Below, in pieces: positions 30 to 50,454 of a stretch of DNA of 64,000 bases. A program made the position numbers and the translations under genes. The notes beneath the pieces are model-generated. The model worked only from the letters and a program-made list of their open reading frames with translations. It searched no databases and had not been told where the DNA came from. Source of the DNA: Escherichia phage vB_Eco_ZCEC15; sequence record PQ871103.1, one strand, 5' to 3'. The number at the start of each line of letters is the position of its first letter. Position 1 is the stretch's first letter.

Positions 30-3000
30 ATGGCTACTTTAAAACAAATACAATTTAAAAGAAGCAAAACTGCAGGTCAACGTCCTGCTGCTTCAGTATT
101 AGCCGAAGGTGAATTGGCTATAAACTTAAAAGATAAAACAATTTTCACAAAAGATGACTCAGGTAGTGTTATAGAATTAGGTTTAAAATATGGAGGAACT
201 ATAAATGGGTCTTTAGAGGTTACAGAAAATATAACTGGAACTTTAATTGGAAATTCTAGCACAGCTACTAAATTGCAAACACCTAGGAAAATTAATGGTA
301 TATCTTTTGATGGGTCAAAGGACATTACCTTAACTCCATCTGACATAAATGTCAATAGCACAACATTTATAAAAAATAATGGCGAATTACCTACTGATGC
401 TAATTTAGATACGTATGGGCCCATTGAAGAATATCTTGGTGTTTGGTCGAAATCTACTTCAACAAATGCGCAACCAGCAAATAAATTCCCAGAAGAAAAT
501 GCCGTAGGTGTACTAGAAGTATTTGTGGCTGGTCAATTTGCTGGCACTCAGCGTTATACTGTTCGGTCTGGTAACGTTTATATTCGTTCCTTATCTGCTA
601 AATGGAATGGCGTAGATGGTCCGTGGGGTGTGTGGCGTAATGTTCAAGCGTCAACTCGTCCACTTTCACAAACGATTGACCTTGATAGCTTGGGAGAATT
701 AGAACATTGTGGCTTATGGCGAAACAGTTCAAGCGCAATCGCATCATTTGATCGCCATTATCCAGAAGAAGGAACAGCCGCACAAGGATTTTTAGAAATA
801 TTTGAAGGTGGTTTATACACGAGAACGCAGCGTTATACTACCCGCATGGGTATGGTTTATACTCGTTGTCTCGCTGCTGCATGGGATGCTAGTGCACCTA
901 AGTGGGAGGAATGGAAGCAGGTTGGTCATGGCACACCAGCGACTTTCTATGATGGAGATCTGAATGATTTTAAAACTCCCGGGTTATATAATATTTTAGG
1001 CACTGATGCCGTTATTAACTGTCCTACAGGTGAAGGTTTGCCGACTGTTATTGTTGGTTTGCTGGAAGTTAAACAGCGTGCTTCTGGCGGTGCTATTTTC
1101 CAACGTTTCACTACCGCAGGAACGGGTGCAACTACTCGCGATCGTATTTTTGAGCGTGCATATACTGGTGGTGCGTGGGGTGCATGGAACGAAGTATATA
1201 CATCTTATTCTCTGCCAATTACTTTGGGTATGGGTGGTATTAAAGCTCAATTAGCGGAGTTAGATTGGCAAACCTTTGATTTTGTCCCTGGTAGTATGTT
1301 TAGCGTTCCTTTGAATAAAATAAAGAACATGCCAGCAAATATGAATTGGGGGACGATTGATGGAAACCTGGTTATGTTTTCCGTTGGTCCTAGCGAACAC
1401 ACTAGCACAGGACGTACTGTTCAGGTTTGGCGTGGTACTGTATCCCAGACAAACTACCGTTATTTTGTCGTTCGTGTGTTCGGTAATTCTGGAAATAGAA
1501 CTTGCACAGTCCGCCGTGTTGTTCTTGAAGATGGTCGCCACACATGGACAGCTCAACAAGATTTTAGGGGCGCGGTTAATCTTTACGGTGCTACATATCT
1601 TCGTTCAAACAATAAATTGATATTAGATCCGGGTGCATATATTCAAGCCCCTGCTAGCGGTTCTGGTTCTAATACTTACGCAAATCAGAATACTACCATT
1701 GCGCCGTTATATCAGGCCATTGACGATTCAAATAAAAACCAGTTTGCGCCAATTGTTAAACAGAAAAACACTGTAACAAATATTACTATGGCTTCTGGTA
1801 TGGATATTGCTAGTTCAGAATATCGTATCGTTGCTCAGGGTGATTTATCCGCTACTGGAACTACAGCCACTGAATTAGCTACATGGCGTTTCTTGCCGTC
1901 TGGCCGATTCATGTCACAAAGCCGAGTTTACGCTGGAGCAGCATTCCTTAATACCGATGGTAATATTGCTGGTTCTATCTGGAAGAAATATAATAATGCA
2001 ACCAATTTAGACGCTGCTTTGAATACTCGCGTGGGTAAAGGCGGTGATATTATGACCGGACGCTTGACAATTCAAAGCCCAGGTGATTCTATTGTATTAT
2101 CAGCACCTGCTAGTAATTCTTTGCATATTCGTGGTGACGTAGACGGGACTGGTAACTGGTATATAGGCAAAGGCGGCGATAATGGTCTAGGTTTTTATAG
2201 TTACATTACACAAGGCGGTGTATACATAACAAATAACGGCGAAATATCGCTTTCTCCTCAAGGTCAAGGAACATTTAATTTTAATAGAGACCGCCTTCAT
2301 ATAAACGGTACACAATGGGTTGCGCATAAATCTGGCGCCTTTGGTGACCAATGGGGTTTAGAAGCTCCGATATTTGTAGATTTTGGATCCGTCAGCAATG
2401 ACTGCTATTATCCTATTATTAAAGGAAAATCTGGTATTACTAACGAAGGATATTTTTCCGGCGTAGATTTTGGTATGCGACGCACTACTAATAACTGGGC
2501 GCAAGGTATTATTCGTGTAGGTAACCAGGAAAATGGTTCTGACCCGCAAGCTGTATATGAATTCCACTATAATGGAACTCTGTTTGTTCCTAACATGGTT
2601 CAAACTGGAGCAAGATTATCAGCTGGCGGTGGTGACCCGGTGTGGACTGGGCCATGTCTTGTTATTGGTGATAATGATACTGGTTTAGTCCATGGCGGTG
2701 ATGGCCGAATCAATATGGTTGCCAATGGTGTTCATATTGCTTCATGGTCATCTGCTTCTCATCTCCATGAAGGTCTTTGGGATACTACTGGTGCTTTGTG
2801 GACTGAGCAAGGAAGAGCTATTATTTCTTTTGGTCATTTAATCCAACAGAGTGATGCATATTCAACGTTTGTCCGTGATGTTTATGTCCGTTCTGATATT
2901 CGCGTTAAAAAAGACCTCGTTAAATTTGAAAATGCTTCTCAGAAGCTTTCTAAAATTAACGGTTACACTTATATGCAGAAGCGAGGCCTGGATGAGGAAG

Positions 3001-3227
3001 GTAATCAGAAATGGGAACCTAACGCCGGTTTAATTGCTCAAGAAGTTCAAGCTATTTTACCAGAATTAGTTGAAGGTGACCCTGATGGTGAAGCTTTACT
3101 TCGTTTGAACTATAACGGTGTAATTGGTTTAAATACAGCTGCAATCAATGAGCATACCGCAGAAATTGCAGAACTTAAATCAGAAATCGAAGAACTTAAA
3201 GCATTAGTTAAATCATTGTTAAAATAA
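30..3227 (+). CDS. 37: long tail fiber distal subunit gp37 with C-terminal intramolecular-chaperone-like domain
   Basis: 1065-aa ORF, ATG at 30 after AAGAGGA; N-terminus [29 protein letters not shown] matches remembered T-even gp37; C-terminal [17 protein letters not shown] plus coiled coil resembles auto-cleaving tail-fiber chaperone modules. Confidence 0.9.
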
Positions 3228-3231
3228 TAAG

Positions 3232-3249
3232 AGGGGCTTCGGCCCCTTG
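3232..3249 (+). other. GC-rich UUCG-tetraloop RNA hairpin between genes 37 and 38
   Basis: GAGGGGC TTCG GCCCCTT directly after gp37 stop and before the gp38 SD; no U-run, so probably a stability or coupling element rather than a terminator. Confidence 0.4.
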
Positions 3250-7489: not shown

Positions 7490-7518
7490 ATAGTATCATG
7501 TTTAAAGCAGAAGTAAAC
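7490..7518 (-). promoter_or_regulatory. early promoter upstream of motA
   Basis: minus strand GTTTAC, 17-bp spacer, TACTAT; about 30 nt upstream of motA ATG. Confidence 0.6.
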
Positions 7519-7557
7519 ACTTTTTTGCACTCTTTTTCAAGAGCTCTAATAAAGTAC

Positions 7558-7785
7558 TTACTTAATGTTCAGATTACGAACTTCGATTTCGTCTTCATGG
7601 GCAAAATCAAACTGTTTGAATTCTGTGTCACCTTTAAATTTAAAAATCATTGTGAAGAAAGTCAGAACACCAGGTTTTTCTTCACGAACTCCACAGATGT
7701 CATATTCAATACCATCTACAACCAGTTTGTTAGCAGTCAGAGCATTTTTAGCTTTAACGATTTCGTTTTCGATTTTAAATTTCAT
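7558..7785 (-). CDS. hypothetical protein 75 aa (motA.1 position)
   Basis: ORF between motA and 52, preceded by a degenerate copy of the motA promoter-proximal block. Confidence 0.5.
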   Translation of the reverse strand: MKFKIENEIVKAKNALTANKLVVDGIEYDICGVREEKPGVLTFFTMIFKFKGDTEFKQFDFAHEDEIEVRNLNIK

Positions 7786-7880
7786 TTTTGTATCTCCGGG
7801 TTGTTTGTTTCAGTTCATTTATTTGATAGTTGTATAGTACCACAGTATGCTTTGGGGGAGAGCCTCGGCTCTCCCTAAAA

Positions 7881-15935: not shown

Positions 15936-15965
15936 ATTATACCACATCCTTGTGGTAAAGTAAAC
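15936..15965 (-). promoter_or_regulatory. early promoter (rIIA.1/rIIA)
   Basis: minus strand GTTTAC TTTACCACAAGGATGTGG TATAAT; -35 overlaps gene 39 stop codon. Confidence 0.65.
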
Positions 15966-17782
15966 TATTGGCTCATCCATTCTTTACGAAGGTCAGCATT
16001 ATCTCCCATGAGCATTTCAAAAAGCTCTTTCCAGTTCTCAGGAAGTTTAACAACATCATATACTGGGTTTTGAATCATCTCACGATATTCAGATTTTTCC
16101 AAAGAGCCAAGTCCCTTAATATAACGGATGCTATGTTTAGGTAGAGCATCTTTGGCACTCTCATATTCAGCGACTGTATAAAACCATTCTTGTTTTTTAC
16201 CGACCTGAGCGATGATTACAGGAGTTTTGACGAAGCGAATTCTTCCTTGTTCAAACAGTTCTGGCCAATTACTAAAAAATCCGAGCAGAGAAGGATAAAT
16301 GCTTCCTAGACCATCATGGTCGGCATCGGTCATAATTGCAATATTATGATAATTCAAGTTTTCAGCCTTTTCACCAAGAACTAATCCAGTGATTGCGCAA
16401 ATATCAAACAGTTCTTTGTTTTTAAGCATATCAGCATATGACATACCCCAACTGTTGAGAACTTTACCACGCAATGGATAACCACCATGAAGTTCTTTAT
16501 CACGAACATCAATAAGATATCCGATAGCAGAATCACCCTCAGTCAAGAAAAGAGTAGTGTCAGCATCTTTACCGCAAAGATTCGCTTTAATGTGTTTATG
16601 AACCTTAGCTTTAGAAGCCTTTTTAGCTGCTTTAGTTTCTGCTGCCTTTTCTGCCGCCAATTTACGAGCCAAAGCAGCTTCAATAATTGGCATTAAAATT
16701 GCTTCATTGTTTAAAATAGCGCGTGAAATCTTTTTAGCATCAAGCTGAATATGACTACGAATTTCACCAAATGGAGAAGTCAAACGCTCTTTAGTTTGAG
16801 AATCAAATCGCATGTTTTTCATATCACGAACAAACATAACGATAGTCAAACATTCTTTAACACGTGCTTTAGTTACATCAATTTTGAACTTACGTTTGAT
16901 TTGTGGAATAAGGTCTTCACAAATATCATCCATAACACAGTCAATATGATGGCCACCATTCTTAGTATGAATGTTATTGACGTATGTTAATTGACGAAAA
17001 CCATCAGGTGAACGACCAACCGCAATAGAGCAATTTTCTTGTTCTTGAACGATAGCATGCTCATCATATTGACGTGCATATTTCTTAAAATTACCCTGAA
17101 CCTTTTTACCATTAAAGGTAAATTGAATATCAGGATAAACTACTGCAAGTGTCTGGAGACGATCTAGTGTAATGTCAAGATAAACTTGAGATAGCTCATT
17201 AGTTTCAAATGACATAAAATCAGGAATGAAAGTAACACGAGTTCCTTTCCATTTTCCAGGAATAGTTTCCCATGATTTATTTTCCATGCCATTTGAACAA
17301 CGAACTACAATATTATTTTGACCGTCGCCAGTTTCACCGACAAACATCACAGAAAAAATGTTTGTCAAACTAGAACCAACACCATTCATACCGCCGGTGA
17401 CGCGTTCTTTATCATCACCAAAGTTACCACCTGCTTTTGGAATAGTCCAGGCAGCAACAGGGCCAGGAATTTCTTCACCGGTAGGTGTTTTAACCATCGC
17501 TTGTGGAATACCGCGACCGTTATCTTCAACTGTTACTTGATTGTTTTTAATAGTAACATTAATTTTATTTGCGAATTTAAACTTAGTACGAATACCTTCA
17601 TCTACTGAGTTATCGATAATTTCATCAATAAGCTTAACAAGACCAGGTACATACTGAACACTTTCCCATTTACCAAACAGAAAGCGCTCATGCGTTTCAT
17701 TAGCTGAAGAGCCAATGTACATGCCACTACGCTTTTTGATATGTTCAATATCGCTCAGAATTTTAATTTCATTCTTAATCAT
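15965..17782 (-). CDS. 39: DNA topoisomerase II large subunit, uninterrupted 39+60 form
   Basis: 605 aa from ATG at 17782 (ORF-track GTG at 17785); MIKNEIKILSDIEHIKKRSGMYIGSS.. GyrB-like; single ORF with no gene-60 split. Confidence 0.9.
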   Translation of the reverse strand: MIKNEIKILSDIEHIKKRSGMYIGSSANETHERFLFGKWESVQYVPGLVKLIDEIIDNSVDEGIRTKFKFANKINVTIKNNQVTVEDNGRGIPQAMVKTPTGEEIPGPVAAWTIPKAGGNFGDDKERVTGGMNGVGSSLTNIFSVMFVGETGDGQNNIVVRCSNGMENKSWETIPGKWKGTRVTFIPDFMSFETNELSQVYLDITLDRLQTLAVVYPDIQFTFNGKKVQGNFKKYARQYDEHAIVQEQENCSIAVGRSPDGFRQLTYVNNIHTKNGGHHIDCVMDDICEDLIPQIKRKFKIDVTKARVKECLTIVMFVRDMKNMRFDSQTKERLTSPFGEIRSHIQLDAKKISRAILNNEAILMPIIEAALARKLAAEKAAETKAAKKASKAKVHKHIKANLCGKDADTTLFLTEGDSAIGYLIDVRDKELHGGYPLRGKVLNSWGMSYADMLKNKELFDICAITGLVLGEKAENLNYHNIAIMTDADHDGLGSIYPSLLGFFSNWPELFEQGRIRFVKTPVIIAQVGKKQEWFYTVAEYESAKDALPKHSIRYIKGLGSLEKSEYREMIQNPVYDVVKLPENWKELFEMLMGDNADLRKEWMSQ

Positions 17783-17809
17783 CACTTATCCTCGTTTGGT
17801 TTCGGGAAT

Positions 17810-28377: not shown

Positions 28378-28587
28378 TTAAATTACATGACTATTTATAA
28401 TAAATTCTTGCGGAACGTTAAAATACCCAATTTTAGTTAATATAACAACATCACCGTTAATAATTACCGGAGAATAATCGGCTGGAGCATTAAACTTCCA
28501 ATGGGCTCTAATATTATATCCATCAGAACCAAATGCTCGACTAGCCGGTCGCCCGGCTTTTTGCCATGCATAAAAATCAAATTTCAT
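28378..28587 (-). CDS. hypothetical protein 69 aa
   Basis: ORF between 56 and soc where T4 carries segF; no endonuclease motif. Confidence 0.5.
   Translation of the reverse strand: MKFDFYAWQKAGRPASRAFGSDGYNIRAHWKFNAPADYSPVIINGDVVILTKIGYFNVPQEFIINSHVI
28393..28400 (-). promoter_or_regulatory. late promoter for soc
   Basis: exact TATAAATA on the minus strand about 32 nt upstream of soc ATG. Confidence 0.65.
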
Positions 28588-45294: not shown

Positions 45295-45349
45295 GTAATT
45301 TCCTTCAATTCAAATGAGATTTAATTTTATAACTAATTTAATAAAGCAA

Positions 45350-45739
45350 TTAACGATTAAAATCAGCAGCAATTGTTTCAGCAACAATTTGAGCAGCAAC
45401 AATTAGACGTTCATCTGCATTACCGCAATAATCGTCTTCAAGGCGTTCACCGCATGAAGTCATAATAAATTTAGCACCAGCATTTAAAGATTCTGTCGTA
45501 TGTTTGCGCATTAGTTCAATCCATTTATTACTTACTTCACGATCGATAGCTTCATAATACGCATGACGAGCAGGTGCAGATTTAATTTTGTTCTGAATAA
45601 CTTCCATTGCGTTATCAGAAAGAGACAAAACCCATGCTCGACGAATTTTATTTTGGTTTTGCGGATTTGATTCAGAACGCACGTGTTTTGGCTGAATATC
45701 TTTTACATCAACAGTATAATTCACAGTAATTTTAGTCAT
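45350..45739 (-). CDS. rpbA: RNA polymerase-binding protein RpbA
   Basis: 129 aa ORF at the T4 rpbA position. Confidence 0.7.
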
Positions 45740-45748
45740 AATACACCT

Positions 45749-45940
45749 TTAGTCATAATAATCAGTAACAGTCCAAGCTTCATTCCTGTTGGACATTATT
45801 TTCGTATATTCTGATTTAAATGCATTCTTAAGCATAGATTCAGTAACTATATGCTCTTCATTAGAAAAATTATTTCTCAGAATATATCGTTTTATTTCAG
45901 GAATAGTTAATAGATGCTGTCCAGTTGAATATTCTGCCAC
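45749..45940 (-). CDS. hypothetical protein 63 aa (45.1 position)
   Basis: GTG start preceded by GGAGGAA. Confidence 0.45.
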   Translation of the reverse strand: MAEYSTGQHLLTIPEIKRYILRNNFSNEEHIVTESMLKNAFKSEYTKIMSNRNEAWTVTDYYD

Positions 45941-45950
45941 AGTTCCTCCG

Positions 45951-45958
45951 TATAAATA
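45951..45958 (+). promoter_or_regulatory. late promoter driving the HNH endonuclease gene
   Basis: exact TATAAATA on the plus strand about 33 nt upstream of the HNH ATG, followed by AAAAGGA SD. Confidence 0.6.
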
Positions 45959-45991
45959 TGTTTATCACTCGCTGTATCAAAAGGATATGTT

Positions 45992-46708
45992 ATGAATTAT
46001 AAACTAATTTATGAAAAGTTAATCTCTAATGCTAAATCTCGAAAACTTGATTGCTATACTGAATCTCATCACATTATACCACGCTGTTTAAATGGTAGCG
46101 ATGATGCTTCAAACTTAGTAGATTTAACACCAGAAGAGCACTATGTAGCTCATCAACTTTTAGTAAAAATTTATCCTTCTGAACCAAAATTAGTCTATGC
46201 TGCTAACATGATGACAGTTTCTACGAAATACGCTAAACGTAACAATAAAACTTTCGGCTGGATTCGTCGTAAACTCTGGGAAATAGAAAAGAATAAAGAG
46301 TTCTCCCAAGAGACACGAAAGAAAATGTCCGACGCAGTAGCTAATAAAGCAAGACTAACTTGTCCACATTGCGGTAAGTCTGGATTAAGCGGGAATATGA
46401 ATCGATGGCATTTTGATAACTGCCCAAATCATCCCAATCCTAAAGTTAGACCGCCAATGTCTAAAGAACACAGAAATAATATCTCAAACGGACTTAAAGC
46501 AATCGTTCTTGAAGAAACATCCTGCGAATTCTGCGGAATGATAGGCAAGAAATGCGTTATCGCAGCGCATAGAAATTTCTGCAAGAAAAATCCAAATGGA
46601 CGCAAGAAAACTGAAAAGACTGGTACTTGCGTCCATTGTGGTAAAGTTACCACTTTCGGAAATTTATCAAGATGGCATAATGATAATTGTAAATATAAAC
46701 CTAGCTAA
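45992..46708 (+). CDS. HNH homing endonuclease (Mob-like) with three Cys4 zinc modules
   Basis: 238 aa; HHIIPRCLNGSDDASNLVDLTPEEHYVAHQ HNH core; CPHCGKSGLSGNMNRWHFDNC, CEFCG..C, CVHCGKVTTFGNLSRWHNDNC; opposite strand to neighbours; 3 prime end overlaps gene 46 by 8 nt. Confidence 0.7.
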   Translation: MNYKLIYEKLISNAKSRKLDCYTESHHIIPRCLNGSDDASNLVDLTPEEHYVAHQLLVKIYPSEPKLVYAANMMTVSTKYAKRNNKTFGWIRRKLWEIEKNKEFSQETRKKMSDAVANKARLTCPHCGKSGLSGNMNRWHFDNCPNHPNPKVRPPMSKEHRNNISNGLKAIVLEETSCEFCGMIGKKCVIAAHRNFCKKNPNGRKKTEKTGTCVHCGKVTTFGNLSRWHNDNCKYKPS

Positions 46709-48389
46709 TCTTAGCTAAACTAAATCTACCAACTTTTTCCATTTGAATGTGCTGACCATATTCCTGTGGGTCATGGTCTTTATGCGAAATTATGAAGAAG
46801 TTGGTATCCTTCAAACCATCTAAAATTTTAGCCACATTTTTAATACCTTCAGCATCAAATGCACCGTCATACACTTCATCAAGAAATAAACAACTTATTT
46901 TAACACCTGAAACTTTTTCAGCAATATCACGCCAAGTAAATAGAAGAGCAATATCAATTCGTGCTTTTTCGCCTTGACTGAATGAAGCATAACTAAAATC
47001 TTCGCGACCACGGGATTTAATTGTCTCATTAAATTCTTCATCTAATGTAAACACATAATCCGCTTCCATTATTTTAAGATAATGGTTAATCTGCTTATTA
47101 AATAATGGAATGTACTTTTTAATAATAGCACCTTTAATACCAGAATCTTTGAGCATATCAGTCAAAATTCCTCTGTGGTATTTTTCCATTACCAAATTAG
47201 TTTTTGTCTTAACAATTTTATCAAGTTCTTCTTGAAGCAGTGCTATTTCATCAGCATGGTCAATAAACTCAGAAGATGCTTTTTCTATAGCCGCTTTAAC
47301 CTTTTTAGCTTTATCTACCGTCGTGATTAAAGATTGCTTTTTATTGCGAATATCATTCGCCAACGTCTGCTGGGTTTTAATATTATCTCGGTATTCATCA
47401 ACGAGAACTTTTAAATTATCACGATGCGTTGAAAGCTGTTCAAACGAATGCGTACATTCAGAAACTTTATCTTTAATTTTAGAAACAACTTTATCACCGG
47501 AACTTAACTGTGACAAGCAGGTTGGACATAATCCACCTTCGTGATACATATTAATGACTTTATTATACGAGTCAATTTTTGATTTAATTAAAACTGCTTC
47601 TTGACCGATTTTATTAAATGCATCAGTCGGGTCTTCATCTAAAACAATATTAACTAATCTTTCATTAGCTTTTTCTATTTCCGATTTTAGCGTTCTAGCT
47701 TCTTTTGCCAAATCATCATACATATTTTGCAGACGAGTAAGATTGTCACCCGTTAATTTTTTCTGGCGTTCAACGTTATCATTATATATTTTAATTTGTT
47801 GGATAATACTATCTTTTTTAACGTCAAGCACTTGGTTTTGTGAATTTAATTCACGTATTAGTGCTTTATTAAGCTTATCCATTTCAGCTAATGTTCCTAC
47901 CTCAAGCAGGTCTTCCACAAGCTTTCTTCGCGCAGGGGTCGACAAACCCATGAAAGGGGTATACCCTGCTGTACCAAGGACAACAATCTGCTTGAAACTG
48001 GCATATGACATTCCGATAAGCTGTTCAAATTCTGCTTGGAAATCTTTACTGCTGGCAGATTCATTAAGACGTGTACCGTTAACGGTGATTTCAAAAACGT
48101 TCGGTTTTTGTCCTCTTTTGATATAGTACTTTTTCTCATCATATTCCATCCACAGTTCAACTAAAAGTTCTTTCTTATTTGTGCTGTTTATTAATTGGCC
48201 TTTCTTTACATCACGAAATGGCTTGCCAAAAAGCCCAAATGTGATGGCTTCTAACATAGTAGACTTACCACCGCCATTTCGTCCAGTAATAAGAGTTTTT
48301 TGAACCTTATCTAATTGAATGTCAATAGGATTTCCACCTACTGACATTATATTTTGATACCTAACTCGGTTTAGTTTAAAATTCTTCAC
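46701..48389 (-). CDS. 46: recombination endonuclease subunit gp46 (Rad50/SbcC-like)
   Basis: 562 aa MKNFKLNRVRYQNIMSVGGNPIDIQLDKVQKTLITGRNGGGKST..; GTG start after AAAGGAA. Confidence 0.9.
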   Translation of the reverse strand: MKNFKLNRVRYQNIMSVGGNPIDIQLDKVQKTLITGRNGGGKSTMLEAITFGLFGKPFRDVKKGQLINSTNKKELLVELWMEYDEKKYYIKRGQKPNVFEITVNGTRLNESASSKDFQAEFEQLIGMSYASFKQIVVLGTAGYTPFMGLSTPARRKLVEDLLEVGTLAEMDKLNKALIRELNSQNQVLDVKKDSIIQQIKIYNDNVERQKKLTGDNLTRLQNMYDDLAKEARTLKSEIEKANERLVNIVLDEDPTDAFNKIGQEAVLIKSKIDSYNKVINMYHEGGLCPTCLSQLSSGDKVVSKIKDKVSECTHSFEQLSTHRDNLKVLVDEYRDNIKTQQTLANDIRNKKQSLITTVDKAKKVKAAIEKASSEFIDHADEIALLQEELDKIVKTKTNLVMEKYHRGILTDMLKDSGIKGAIIKKYIPLFNKQINHYLKIMEADYVFTLDEEFNETIKSRGREDFSYASFSQGEKARIDIALLFTWRDIAEKVSGVKISCLFLDEVYDGAFDAEGIKNVAKILDGLKDTNFFIISHKDHDPQEYGQHIQMEKVGRFSLAKIS

Positions 48390-49962: not shown

Positions 49963-50454
49963 TTATACCATTTTTTTACCTTTATTATGTGATGAAGCTT
50001 TAAATTTATTTGACCTTCCTTTTACATAACCTTTTGGAATATAAGGCAAAAAGGCAGATTTTCCTGTTAATGGATCATGTGAATGTATATTTCCTTTACA
50101 ATTATGAGAACCATATAATGGATGATTTTGTCCTTTATTATCTCTTCCAAATGAACCTTTTGGAGCAGCATATGACATATTAAAGAATAATGGATTTTTA
50201 ACTGCATCATGCAATCGTTGATAATATAACTCGCATTTAATAGCTTCTTCACGCGTATCAAATTCAGCTAAAATGCATGAATCAAATAAGTGAGGATTAT
50301 CTGAAAGCTCTTTATTATAAATTTTCTTATACTTTTTAGATAAAACTGAACCATGATATCCAGCTAAATGCCTATCTAAAGACGTAGATCCAATATAAAA
50401 AGGAGGAAGTTTATCTCCACTATATATTGTTAAATAAGTTATATATTTTTTCAT
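49963..50454 (-). CDS. short GIY-YIG domain protein (Seg-like, possibly truncated)
   Basis: 163 aa; YITYLTIYSGDKLPPFYIGSTS GIY-YIG motif; NUMOD-like GQNHPLYGSH; lacks C-terminal zinc module. Confidence 0.55.
   Translation of the reverse strand: MKKYITYLTIYSGDKLPPFYIGSTSLDRHLAGYHGSVLSKKYKKIYNKELSDNPHLFDSCILAEFDTREEAIKCELYYQRLHDAVKNPLFFNMSYAAPKGSFGRDNKGQNHPLYGSHNCKGNIHSHDPLTGKSAFLPYIPKGYVKGRSNKFKASSHNKGKKMV

Follow-up and report, generated by a model that had tools for sequence, protein, structure and literature searches.

The spacer between genes 45.2 and 46 of Escherichia phage vB_Eco_ZCEC15 (PQ871103.1) very probably harbours a gene for a free-standing, mob-like HNH homing endonuclease that is oriented against its neighbours and homes by way of the tail of gene 46. 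We analysed a stretch of 64,000 nucleotides from this phage, referred to as the window, and all positions are those of the window unless a locus is named. Elements of this class are well known; this one is ordinary among them, and public genomes already include annotations of it. New are the purifying selection on its protein, the scatter of its carriers, which do not form a clade, the linkage of the insert to a tract at the end of gene 46 in 59 records, its recurrence in other genera and the presence of its promoter in four of five lineages.

The endonuclease ORF occupies positions 45992–46708 on the plus strand, starts with ATG and encodes 238 amino acids followed by a stop codon. It converges on gene 46 (46701–48389, minus strand), and the stop regions of the two genes share 8 nt (46701–46708), which confirms the earlier note in its description of an opposite-strand gene that overlaps gene 46 convergently. 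The note had placed the gene between rpbA/45.1 and gene 46. The gene 46 side of this placement stands; the left neighbour is actually gene 45.2 (45749–45940, minus strand; Pfam Gp45_2, 4.9e-35), and rpbA, named 45.1 in some records, lies one gene beyond it. The junction alters the start of 45.2, which reads M-A-E-Y from a GTG codon here versus M-E-Y from an ATG codon in T4.

The protein matches PHROG 655, labelled “homing endonuclease”, at 8.6e-69. In tblastn searches of GenBank phages it is 35% identical to T4 MobE over the full length of 238 aa (2e-25) and 53% identical to T4 MobD over the first 70 aa, and it is 44% identical to T4 MobB over the N-terminal 110 aa (4e-26). A large protein database contains 2299 homologues, many of them with NUMOD3 or HNH Pfam domains. 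The Pfam HNH model PF01844 is found in some homologues, and the endonuclease itself scores below the gathering cut-off (16.9 bits versus 21.4, E 0.0072). Short, divergent HNH cores are often missed by this model. The basis of the family assignment is the PHROGs match together with the homology to Mob proteins, and the similarity to PHROG 655, MobE, MobB and MobD supports the initial description of a free-standing mob-type HNH homing endonuclease. The HNH homology expected from profile searches is present in the PHROG 655 match, though not at the Pfam threshold. It is also seen with a family profile, which aligns the HNH motif with McrA at E 0.001 and, at E about 0.02, with IscB, Cas8-HNH and a group II maturase. 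No meaningful hit came from comparing the protein sequence with PDB chains.

Invariant residues, the strands and helix of the structure model and the profile match delimit an N-terminal nuclease domain of the HNH type (with a putative beta-beta-alpha-metal fold) at aa 1–100 (45992–46291, plus strand), with the catalytic core at aa 24–54 (46061–46153, plus strand; E24, H26, H27, N41, H50 and H54). In 35 aligned homologues E24, H26, H27, P30, G35, N41, H50 and H54 are invariant, which constitutes the HNH signature and upholds the core (E24-H26-H27...N41...H50...H54) that had been proposed from the letters of the sequence. The AlphaFold2 model has a mean pLDDT of 90.2, and its strands at residues 24–27 and 42–45 and helix at residues 47–60 form a beta-beta-alpha arrangement. 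In the C-terminal part of the model, two NUMOD3-like helices alternate with three small hairpin-plus-helix modules. The first helix (FSQETRKKMSDAV; 46298–46342, plus strand) comprises residues 106–117 in the model and the second (46457–46498, plus strand) residues 158–169. Pfam NUMOD3 (PF07460) matches weakly at aa 103–115 (E 0.14, 12.6 bits versus a cut-off of 20.4), and many homologues have PF07460 repeats at the positions aligned with these helices; two such repeats are replaced here by CCHC modules.

Three cysteine-rich modules had been predicted as Cys4 modules. The number is correct, but each has the pattern C-x2-C-x11/12-H-x3-C and is thus a CCHC zinc module, built in the AlphaFold model from a beta-hairpin and a helix. 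Module 1 (46361–46423, plus strand) reads C124-x2-C127-x12-H140-x3-C144, module 2 (46523–46582, plus strand) reads C178-x2-C181-x11-H193-x3-C197 with an extra cysteine at C188, and module 3 (46628–46690, plus strand) reads C213-x2-C216-x12-H229-x3-C233. All four of these module 3 residues are invariant across the 35-sequence alignment. Foldseek gives weak matches to zinc-finger arrays, and whole-chain fold searches are uninformative because the model is elongated.

Upstream of the ORF, an exact match to the T4-type late promoter core, TATAAATA, lies at 45951–45958 on the plus strand, 34 nt ahead of the start codon. It is followed by a 5' leader (GTTTATCA..TCGCTGTATCAAA; 45959–45991, plus strand) that is conserved in the alignment of same-site homologues, with a Shine–Dalgarno sequence, AGGA, at 45982–45985, 6 nt before the ATG. 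The promoter and Shine–Dalgarno sequence are those reported in the earlier note, and the promoter is conserved across genera. The 64-kb window has just two copies of TATAAATA (28392–28399, minus strand, and 45951–45958, plus strand), compared to 9.7 expected from dinucleotide-preserving shuffles, of which the minimum was 2. This depletion suggests that stray late promoters are selected against in the early-gene block, and the avoidance of TATAAATA there makes its position before the start codon unlikely to be accidental. Of the five lineages with a same-site homologue, four, among them Roth67, 348Ecol098PP and the locus L018, retain promoter and leader, and the fifth, phT4A, has TTAAATA. The sequence 5' of the promoter is unrelated between lineages, and TATAAATA thus marks the left edge of the cassette.

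We found no stable RNA hairpin that masks the ribosome-binding site in the endonuclease leader (z = –0.40) and no intrinsic terminator after the ORF within 600 bp or anywhere in 45300–47300. The predicted endonuclease transcript would run antisense into gene 46. A comparison of the promoter and leader with the endonuclease-free 3' region of gene 46 for an operator of the I-TevI kind gave a best score of 13, which is not significant, since shuffled sequences average 10.2 and reach 14.

The insert also affects the surroundings of 45.2. The spacer between genes 46 and 45.2 was scanned in two non-carrier loci, T4 (L048 4639–4693) and OMNI12 (L046 4639–4693), and in both it contains TGCTTTA-N12-TATAAT, a MotA box with a –10 element, just upstream of 45.2. 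This combination is typical of T4 middle promoters. The corresponding region of the window is 45941–46100 on the minus strand, and no equivalent motif is present on the minus strand of 45700–47000. The motif has been replaced by the insert, so local regulation is probably changed, and transcription of 45.2 in the carrier probably depends on read-through or on another promoter.

The endonuclease gene is a presence/absence polymorphism. It is found in 59 of 526 Tequatrovirus records among the GenBank phage records that match the region, i.e. ~11% or about one in nine. We used the GenBank phage collection, as close relatives were scarce in IMG/VR, with 36 loci of which one has a homologue, and fetched eight carrier and ten non-carrier loci for alignment with the window. 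T4 and the nine other fetched non-carriers have nothing but a 55-bp spacer between 45.2 and 46, where the window has ~760 bp. The absence of the gene from this site in T4, which the earlier note had suggested, is thereby borne out. The junctions are the same in all eight carrier loci, and the comparison of the 45–46 junction that the note had proposed yields 59 carriers, with constant borders in the eight that were aligned.

Most carrier genomes already have a CDS annotation for the gene, dozens of them in GenBank and many labelled “homing endonuclease”, so the gene is known as an annotation. In RB32 it is ORF054w, described in 2006 as “putative site-specific intron-like DNA endonuclease” and “similar to mobB”. 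RB32, RB51, RB68, slur07, teqhad, PhiZZ30 and others have the same gene at the same site with 97–100% identity. There is no substantive difference between these genes and that of the window, which is another carrier genome. In Petrov et al. 2010 (PMC2993671), RB32 is credited with two mob-like HNH endonuclease genes, whose positions are not given. Our literature search turned up no publication that deals with an endonuclease gene located at the 45.2/46 junction.

The two flanks of the insert behave differently. On the left, carriers are indistinguishable from non-carriers right up to the start codon of 45.2. On the right, the last ~70 codons of gene 46 (46709–46925, minus strand) are 17–28% divergent between the eight carrier and ten non-carrier loci, with 20 fixed differences, and divergence returns to the 1–2% background of gene 46 from about position 46930. 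Across the whole phage collection this ~217-bp tract is at least 95% identical to the window in exactly 59 records and at most 81% identical in all others, with no record between 81% and 96%; it accompanies the insert in 59 of 59 cases. Among the fetched loci, non-carriers have two haplotypes of the tract and carriers a third. The tract encodes the Walker B sequence LFLDEV, the D-loop and the H-loop ISHKDH, and it includes a conserved block, GGGTCATGGTCTTTATGCGAAAT, that encodes ISHKDHDP. Several residues of the gp46 tail are changed, the carrier protein reading LFLDEVYDGAFD...GRFSLAKIS before the stop codon versus LILDEVFDGSFD...GRFTVMV in T4.

We infer from this comparison that 46709–46925 is a co-conversion tract as well as the immunity and target region. 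The tract could instead be DNA that was brought in with the cassette by one old recombination event and not the mark of a cleavage site. No donor was found among 57 fetched loci, in which the best match outside Tequatrovirus has 75% DNA identity. The carrier tail shares the amino-acid motif CLFLDEVYDGAFDAEGIKNV with Klebsiella phage Roth67, at a DNA identity of 72–75%, which hints at import of the tract from a Klebsiella-phage-like donor. The sharply bounded, replicated tract is what the present analysis adds to the existing annotations, and it predicts where the target is located.

At the same place, 348Ecol098PP (a Mosigvirus), Klebsiella phage Roth67, phT4A (a Slopekvirus) and one IMG/VR contig have homologues with 42–64% identity, which are likewise inverted and overlap the end of gene 46. 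Divergence limited to the tail of gene 46 also recurs around these homologues in Mosigvirus and the Klebsiella phages. We compared the last ~900 nt of gene 46, and scored pairs of non-carriers over the last ~200 columns. In Mosigvirus (L057 versus L009 and L010) identity is 60–86% in the last ~200 columns and 88–100% in the rest of the compared segment, with 88–100% between non-carriers; in the Klebsiella phages (L056 versus L016 and L017) the corresponding values are 63–78%, 76–100% and 92–98%. Gene 46 is an essential recombination gene that encodes the Rad50-like subunit of the nuclease resecting the breaks that homing needs. We tentatively suggest, at somewhat less than even odds, that the element belongs to a lineage specialised on the Walker-B/H-loop 3' end of gene 46, which has kept its site, its inverted orientation, the overlap with the gene 46 stop and a late promoter of its own in at least four Straboviridae genera, moves between genera together with ~210 bp of the gene and so repeatedly rewrites the catalytic tail of gp46; its late transcript may also serve as an antisense RNA against gene 46.

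The pattern of variation within Tequatrovirus indicates that the unit is, or recently was, mobile and functional. Among nine carrier copies pN/pS is 0.03 with a pS of 0.087, which implies purifying selection on the protein. All nine copies are full length, and 52 of the 59 proteins are at least 99% identical. In neither the left nor the right flank do the carriers cluster, and their nearest relatives are often non-carriers; in the 205-bp tract, by comparison, carriers are each other's nearest neighbours. Since carriers are not a clade in the flanks, a unit of ~1 kb has moved between backgrounds. The gene is intact, and its product is probably active.

By analogy with MobE (PMC2790892), the most likely course is the following homing cycle, in which we infer the time of expression, cleavage, the position of the target and immunity. 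Late in infection, gp55-directed RNA polymerase would start just downstream of TATAAATA, and the protein would be made. Its C-terminal array of NUMOD3-like helices and three CCHC modules would recognise endonuclease-free co-infecting phages by binding a conserved stretch at their gene 46 3' end, and the N-terminal HNH domain would nick or cut nearby. The nick or break is expected close to the GGGTCATGGTCTTTATGCGAAAT block. Recombinational repair from the carrier would then transfer the endonuclease gene along with ~210 bp of neighbouring gene 46 sequence, and the carrier's own gene 46 tail, which differs at about 20–25% of positions, would protect it from cutting.

An alternative that we consider unlikely is that the DNA-binding protein is intact but has lost homing and been domesticated, for instance as a late regulator, or that the late transcript matters mainly as an antisense RNA against gene 46 and the protein is kept for a benefit to the phage. 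Strong purifying selection would go with any function of use. A conserved late promoter and leader belong to the gene itself, while seven free-standing endonuclease genes of T4 are described as promoter-less (PMC2988022). Its transcript would run antisense into gene 46 with no terminator found within 600 bp, and the loss of the MotA-box/–10 motif upstream of 45.2 has probably changed local regulation. However, all catalytic HNH residues are invariant, which would be unneeded in a pure DNA binder. A gene found in ~11% of records, whose carriers form no clade, is distributed as a selfish element would be, unlike a gene useful to its host. Homing also predicts the exact linkage with a divergent tract on the target side, which is seen in three genera.

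Quite unlikely, in our estimate, is an inactive or nearly inactive remnant that was acquired once with a foreign piece of gene 46 and has since been passed on by ordinary recombination. Decay apparently occurs in this group: the Roth67 homologue (L056 2501–3235), which is 64% identical, is split into two annotated ORFs (2501–2770 and 2834–3235), so at least some copies decay, and T4 itself has defunct endonuclease genes such as I-TevIII (PMC2790892). The sharing of CLFLDEVYDGAFDAEGIKNV between the carrier tail and Roth67 is also compatible with a single import. A remnant would not, however, be expected to have a pN/pS as low as that found here at a pS of 0.087, which speaks of long-continued selection on the protein, nor full-length ORFs in every copy compared and near-identity of most of the 59 proteins. 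The scatter of carriers among non-carriers argues for repeated transfer of the ~1-kb unit with sharp, constant borders. A chance antisense open frame in an AT-rich spacer, for which nothing but the unusual orientation speaks, has next to no probability and is ruled out by the PHROG 655 match and the thousands of homologues, the purifying selection, the confident model and the CDS annotations in other genomes.

Several other features of the window and the related loci were recorded alongside the homing endonuclease gene. Four phages, SYGD1, RB68, OMNI12 and 101112UKE3-1, have a further gene of 627–855 nt between genes 46 and 46.1 (L038 7106–7960, L044 7334–7960, L046 6392–7246 and L054 6392–7246), which the SYGD1 and RB68 annotations call a homing endonuclease and which is absent from the window; both ends of gene 46 are thus insertion sites for such genes. 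Shigella phage SHBML-50-1 has an extra ORF of 888 nt between gene 45 and rpbA (L055 3111–3998), which is absent from the window and from T4. Between gene 47 and a-gt, the window contains a second mobile-endonuclease-like ORF at 49963–50454 (minus strand). Its N-terminus, MKKYITYLTIYSG..FYIGST, resembles a seg-type GIY-YIG motif, and its best PHROG, 10820, is labelled “HNH endonuclease”; with 163 aa versus 207 aa in phage teqhad (L041 8531–9154) it is truncated at the C-terminus. A 126-aa ORF at 7498–7878 (plus strand) lies in a gap among minus-strand genes, has no PHROG match and may be the second plus-strand gene that the earlier note mentioned. The large subunit of topoisomerase II is a single ORF of 606 aa (15965–17785, minus strand), which corresponds to T4 genes 39 and 60 joined; the phage of the window thus does not have the T4 split of that gene.

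For readers outside the field the result is of little import, as an annotated, uncharacterised gene is confirmed to be real and intact. Within it, the linkage of the 217-bp gene 46 tract, which three genera show independently, narrows the region where the cleavage site can be sought. The element is also a naturally occurring case of a mob-type gene on the antisense strand that has a predicted late promoter to itself, and of a selfish element reshaping the ATPase tail of a phage Rad50 homologue.

A close relative is T4 MobE, a free-standing HNH nicking homing endonuclease encoded between nrdA and nrdB, for which there is genetic and in vivo evidence (Wilson & Edgell 2009, PMC2790892). Both proteins belong to the same family, combine an N-terminal HNH domain with a modular C-terminal DNA-binding region and are encoded by free-standing genes between conserved genes. 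With MobE, too, the adjacent conserved gene is polymorphic around the nick site between carriers and non-carriers, and the gene 46 tract looks analogous. They differ in that mobE runs in the same direction as the genes beside it, lacks its own promoter and has an internal terminator that limits it (PMC2790892). The insertion site differs, as does the target, presumed here to be the 3' end of gene 46 and not the 5' end of nrdB, and the window gene lies on the opposite strand with its own late promoter and encodes three CCHC zinc modules. The predicted HNH homing endonucleases MobB and MobD share the N-terminal HNH domain with the window protein (44% identity for MobB and 53% over 70 aa for MobD), but the similarity is confined to the nuclease domain, and both the genomic sites and the C-terminal regions differ. 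To our knowledge, neither MobB nor MobD has been biochemically characterised.

Antisense orientation to the neighbouring genes is also seen in segD (PMC2988022), which differs in encoding a GIY-YIG enzyme and in having no promoter of its own. The genes for I-TevI, I-TevII as well as I-TevIII resemble that of the window in having late (or middle) promoters directly upstream (PMC2988022). Unlike it, they are intron-encoded, and early transcripts form hairpins that mask their ribosome-binding sites. Such a hairpin is unneeded for the window endonuclease, because early transcripts read the other strand.
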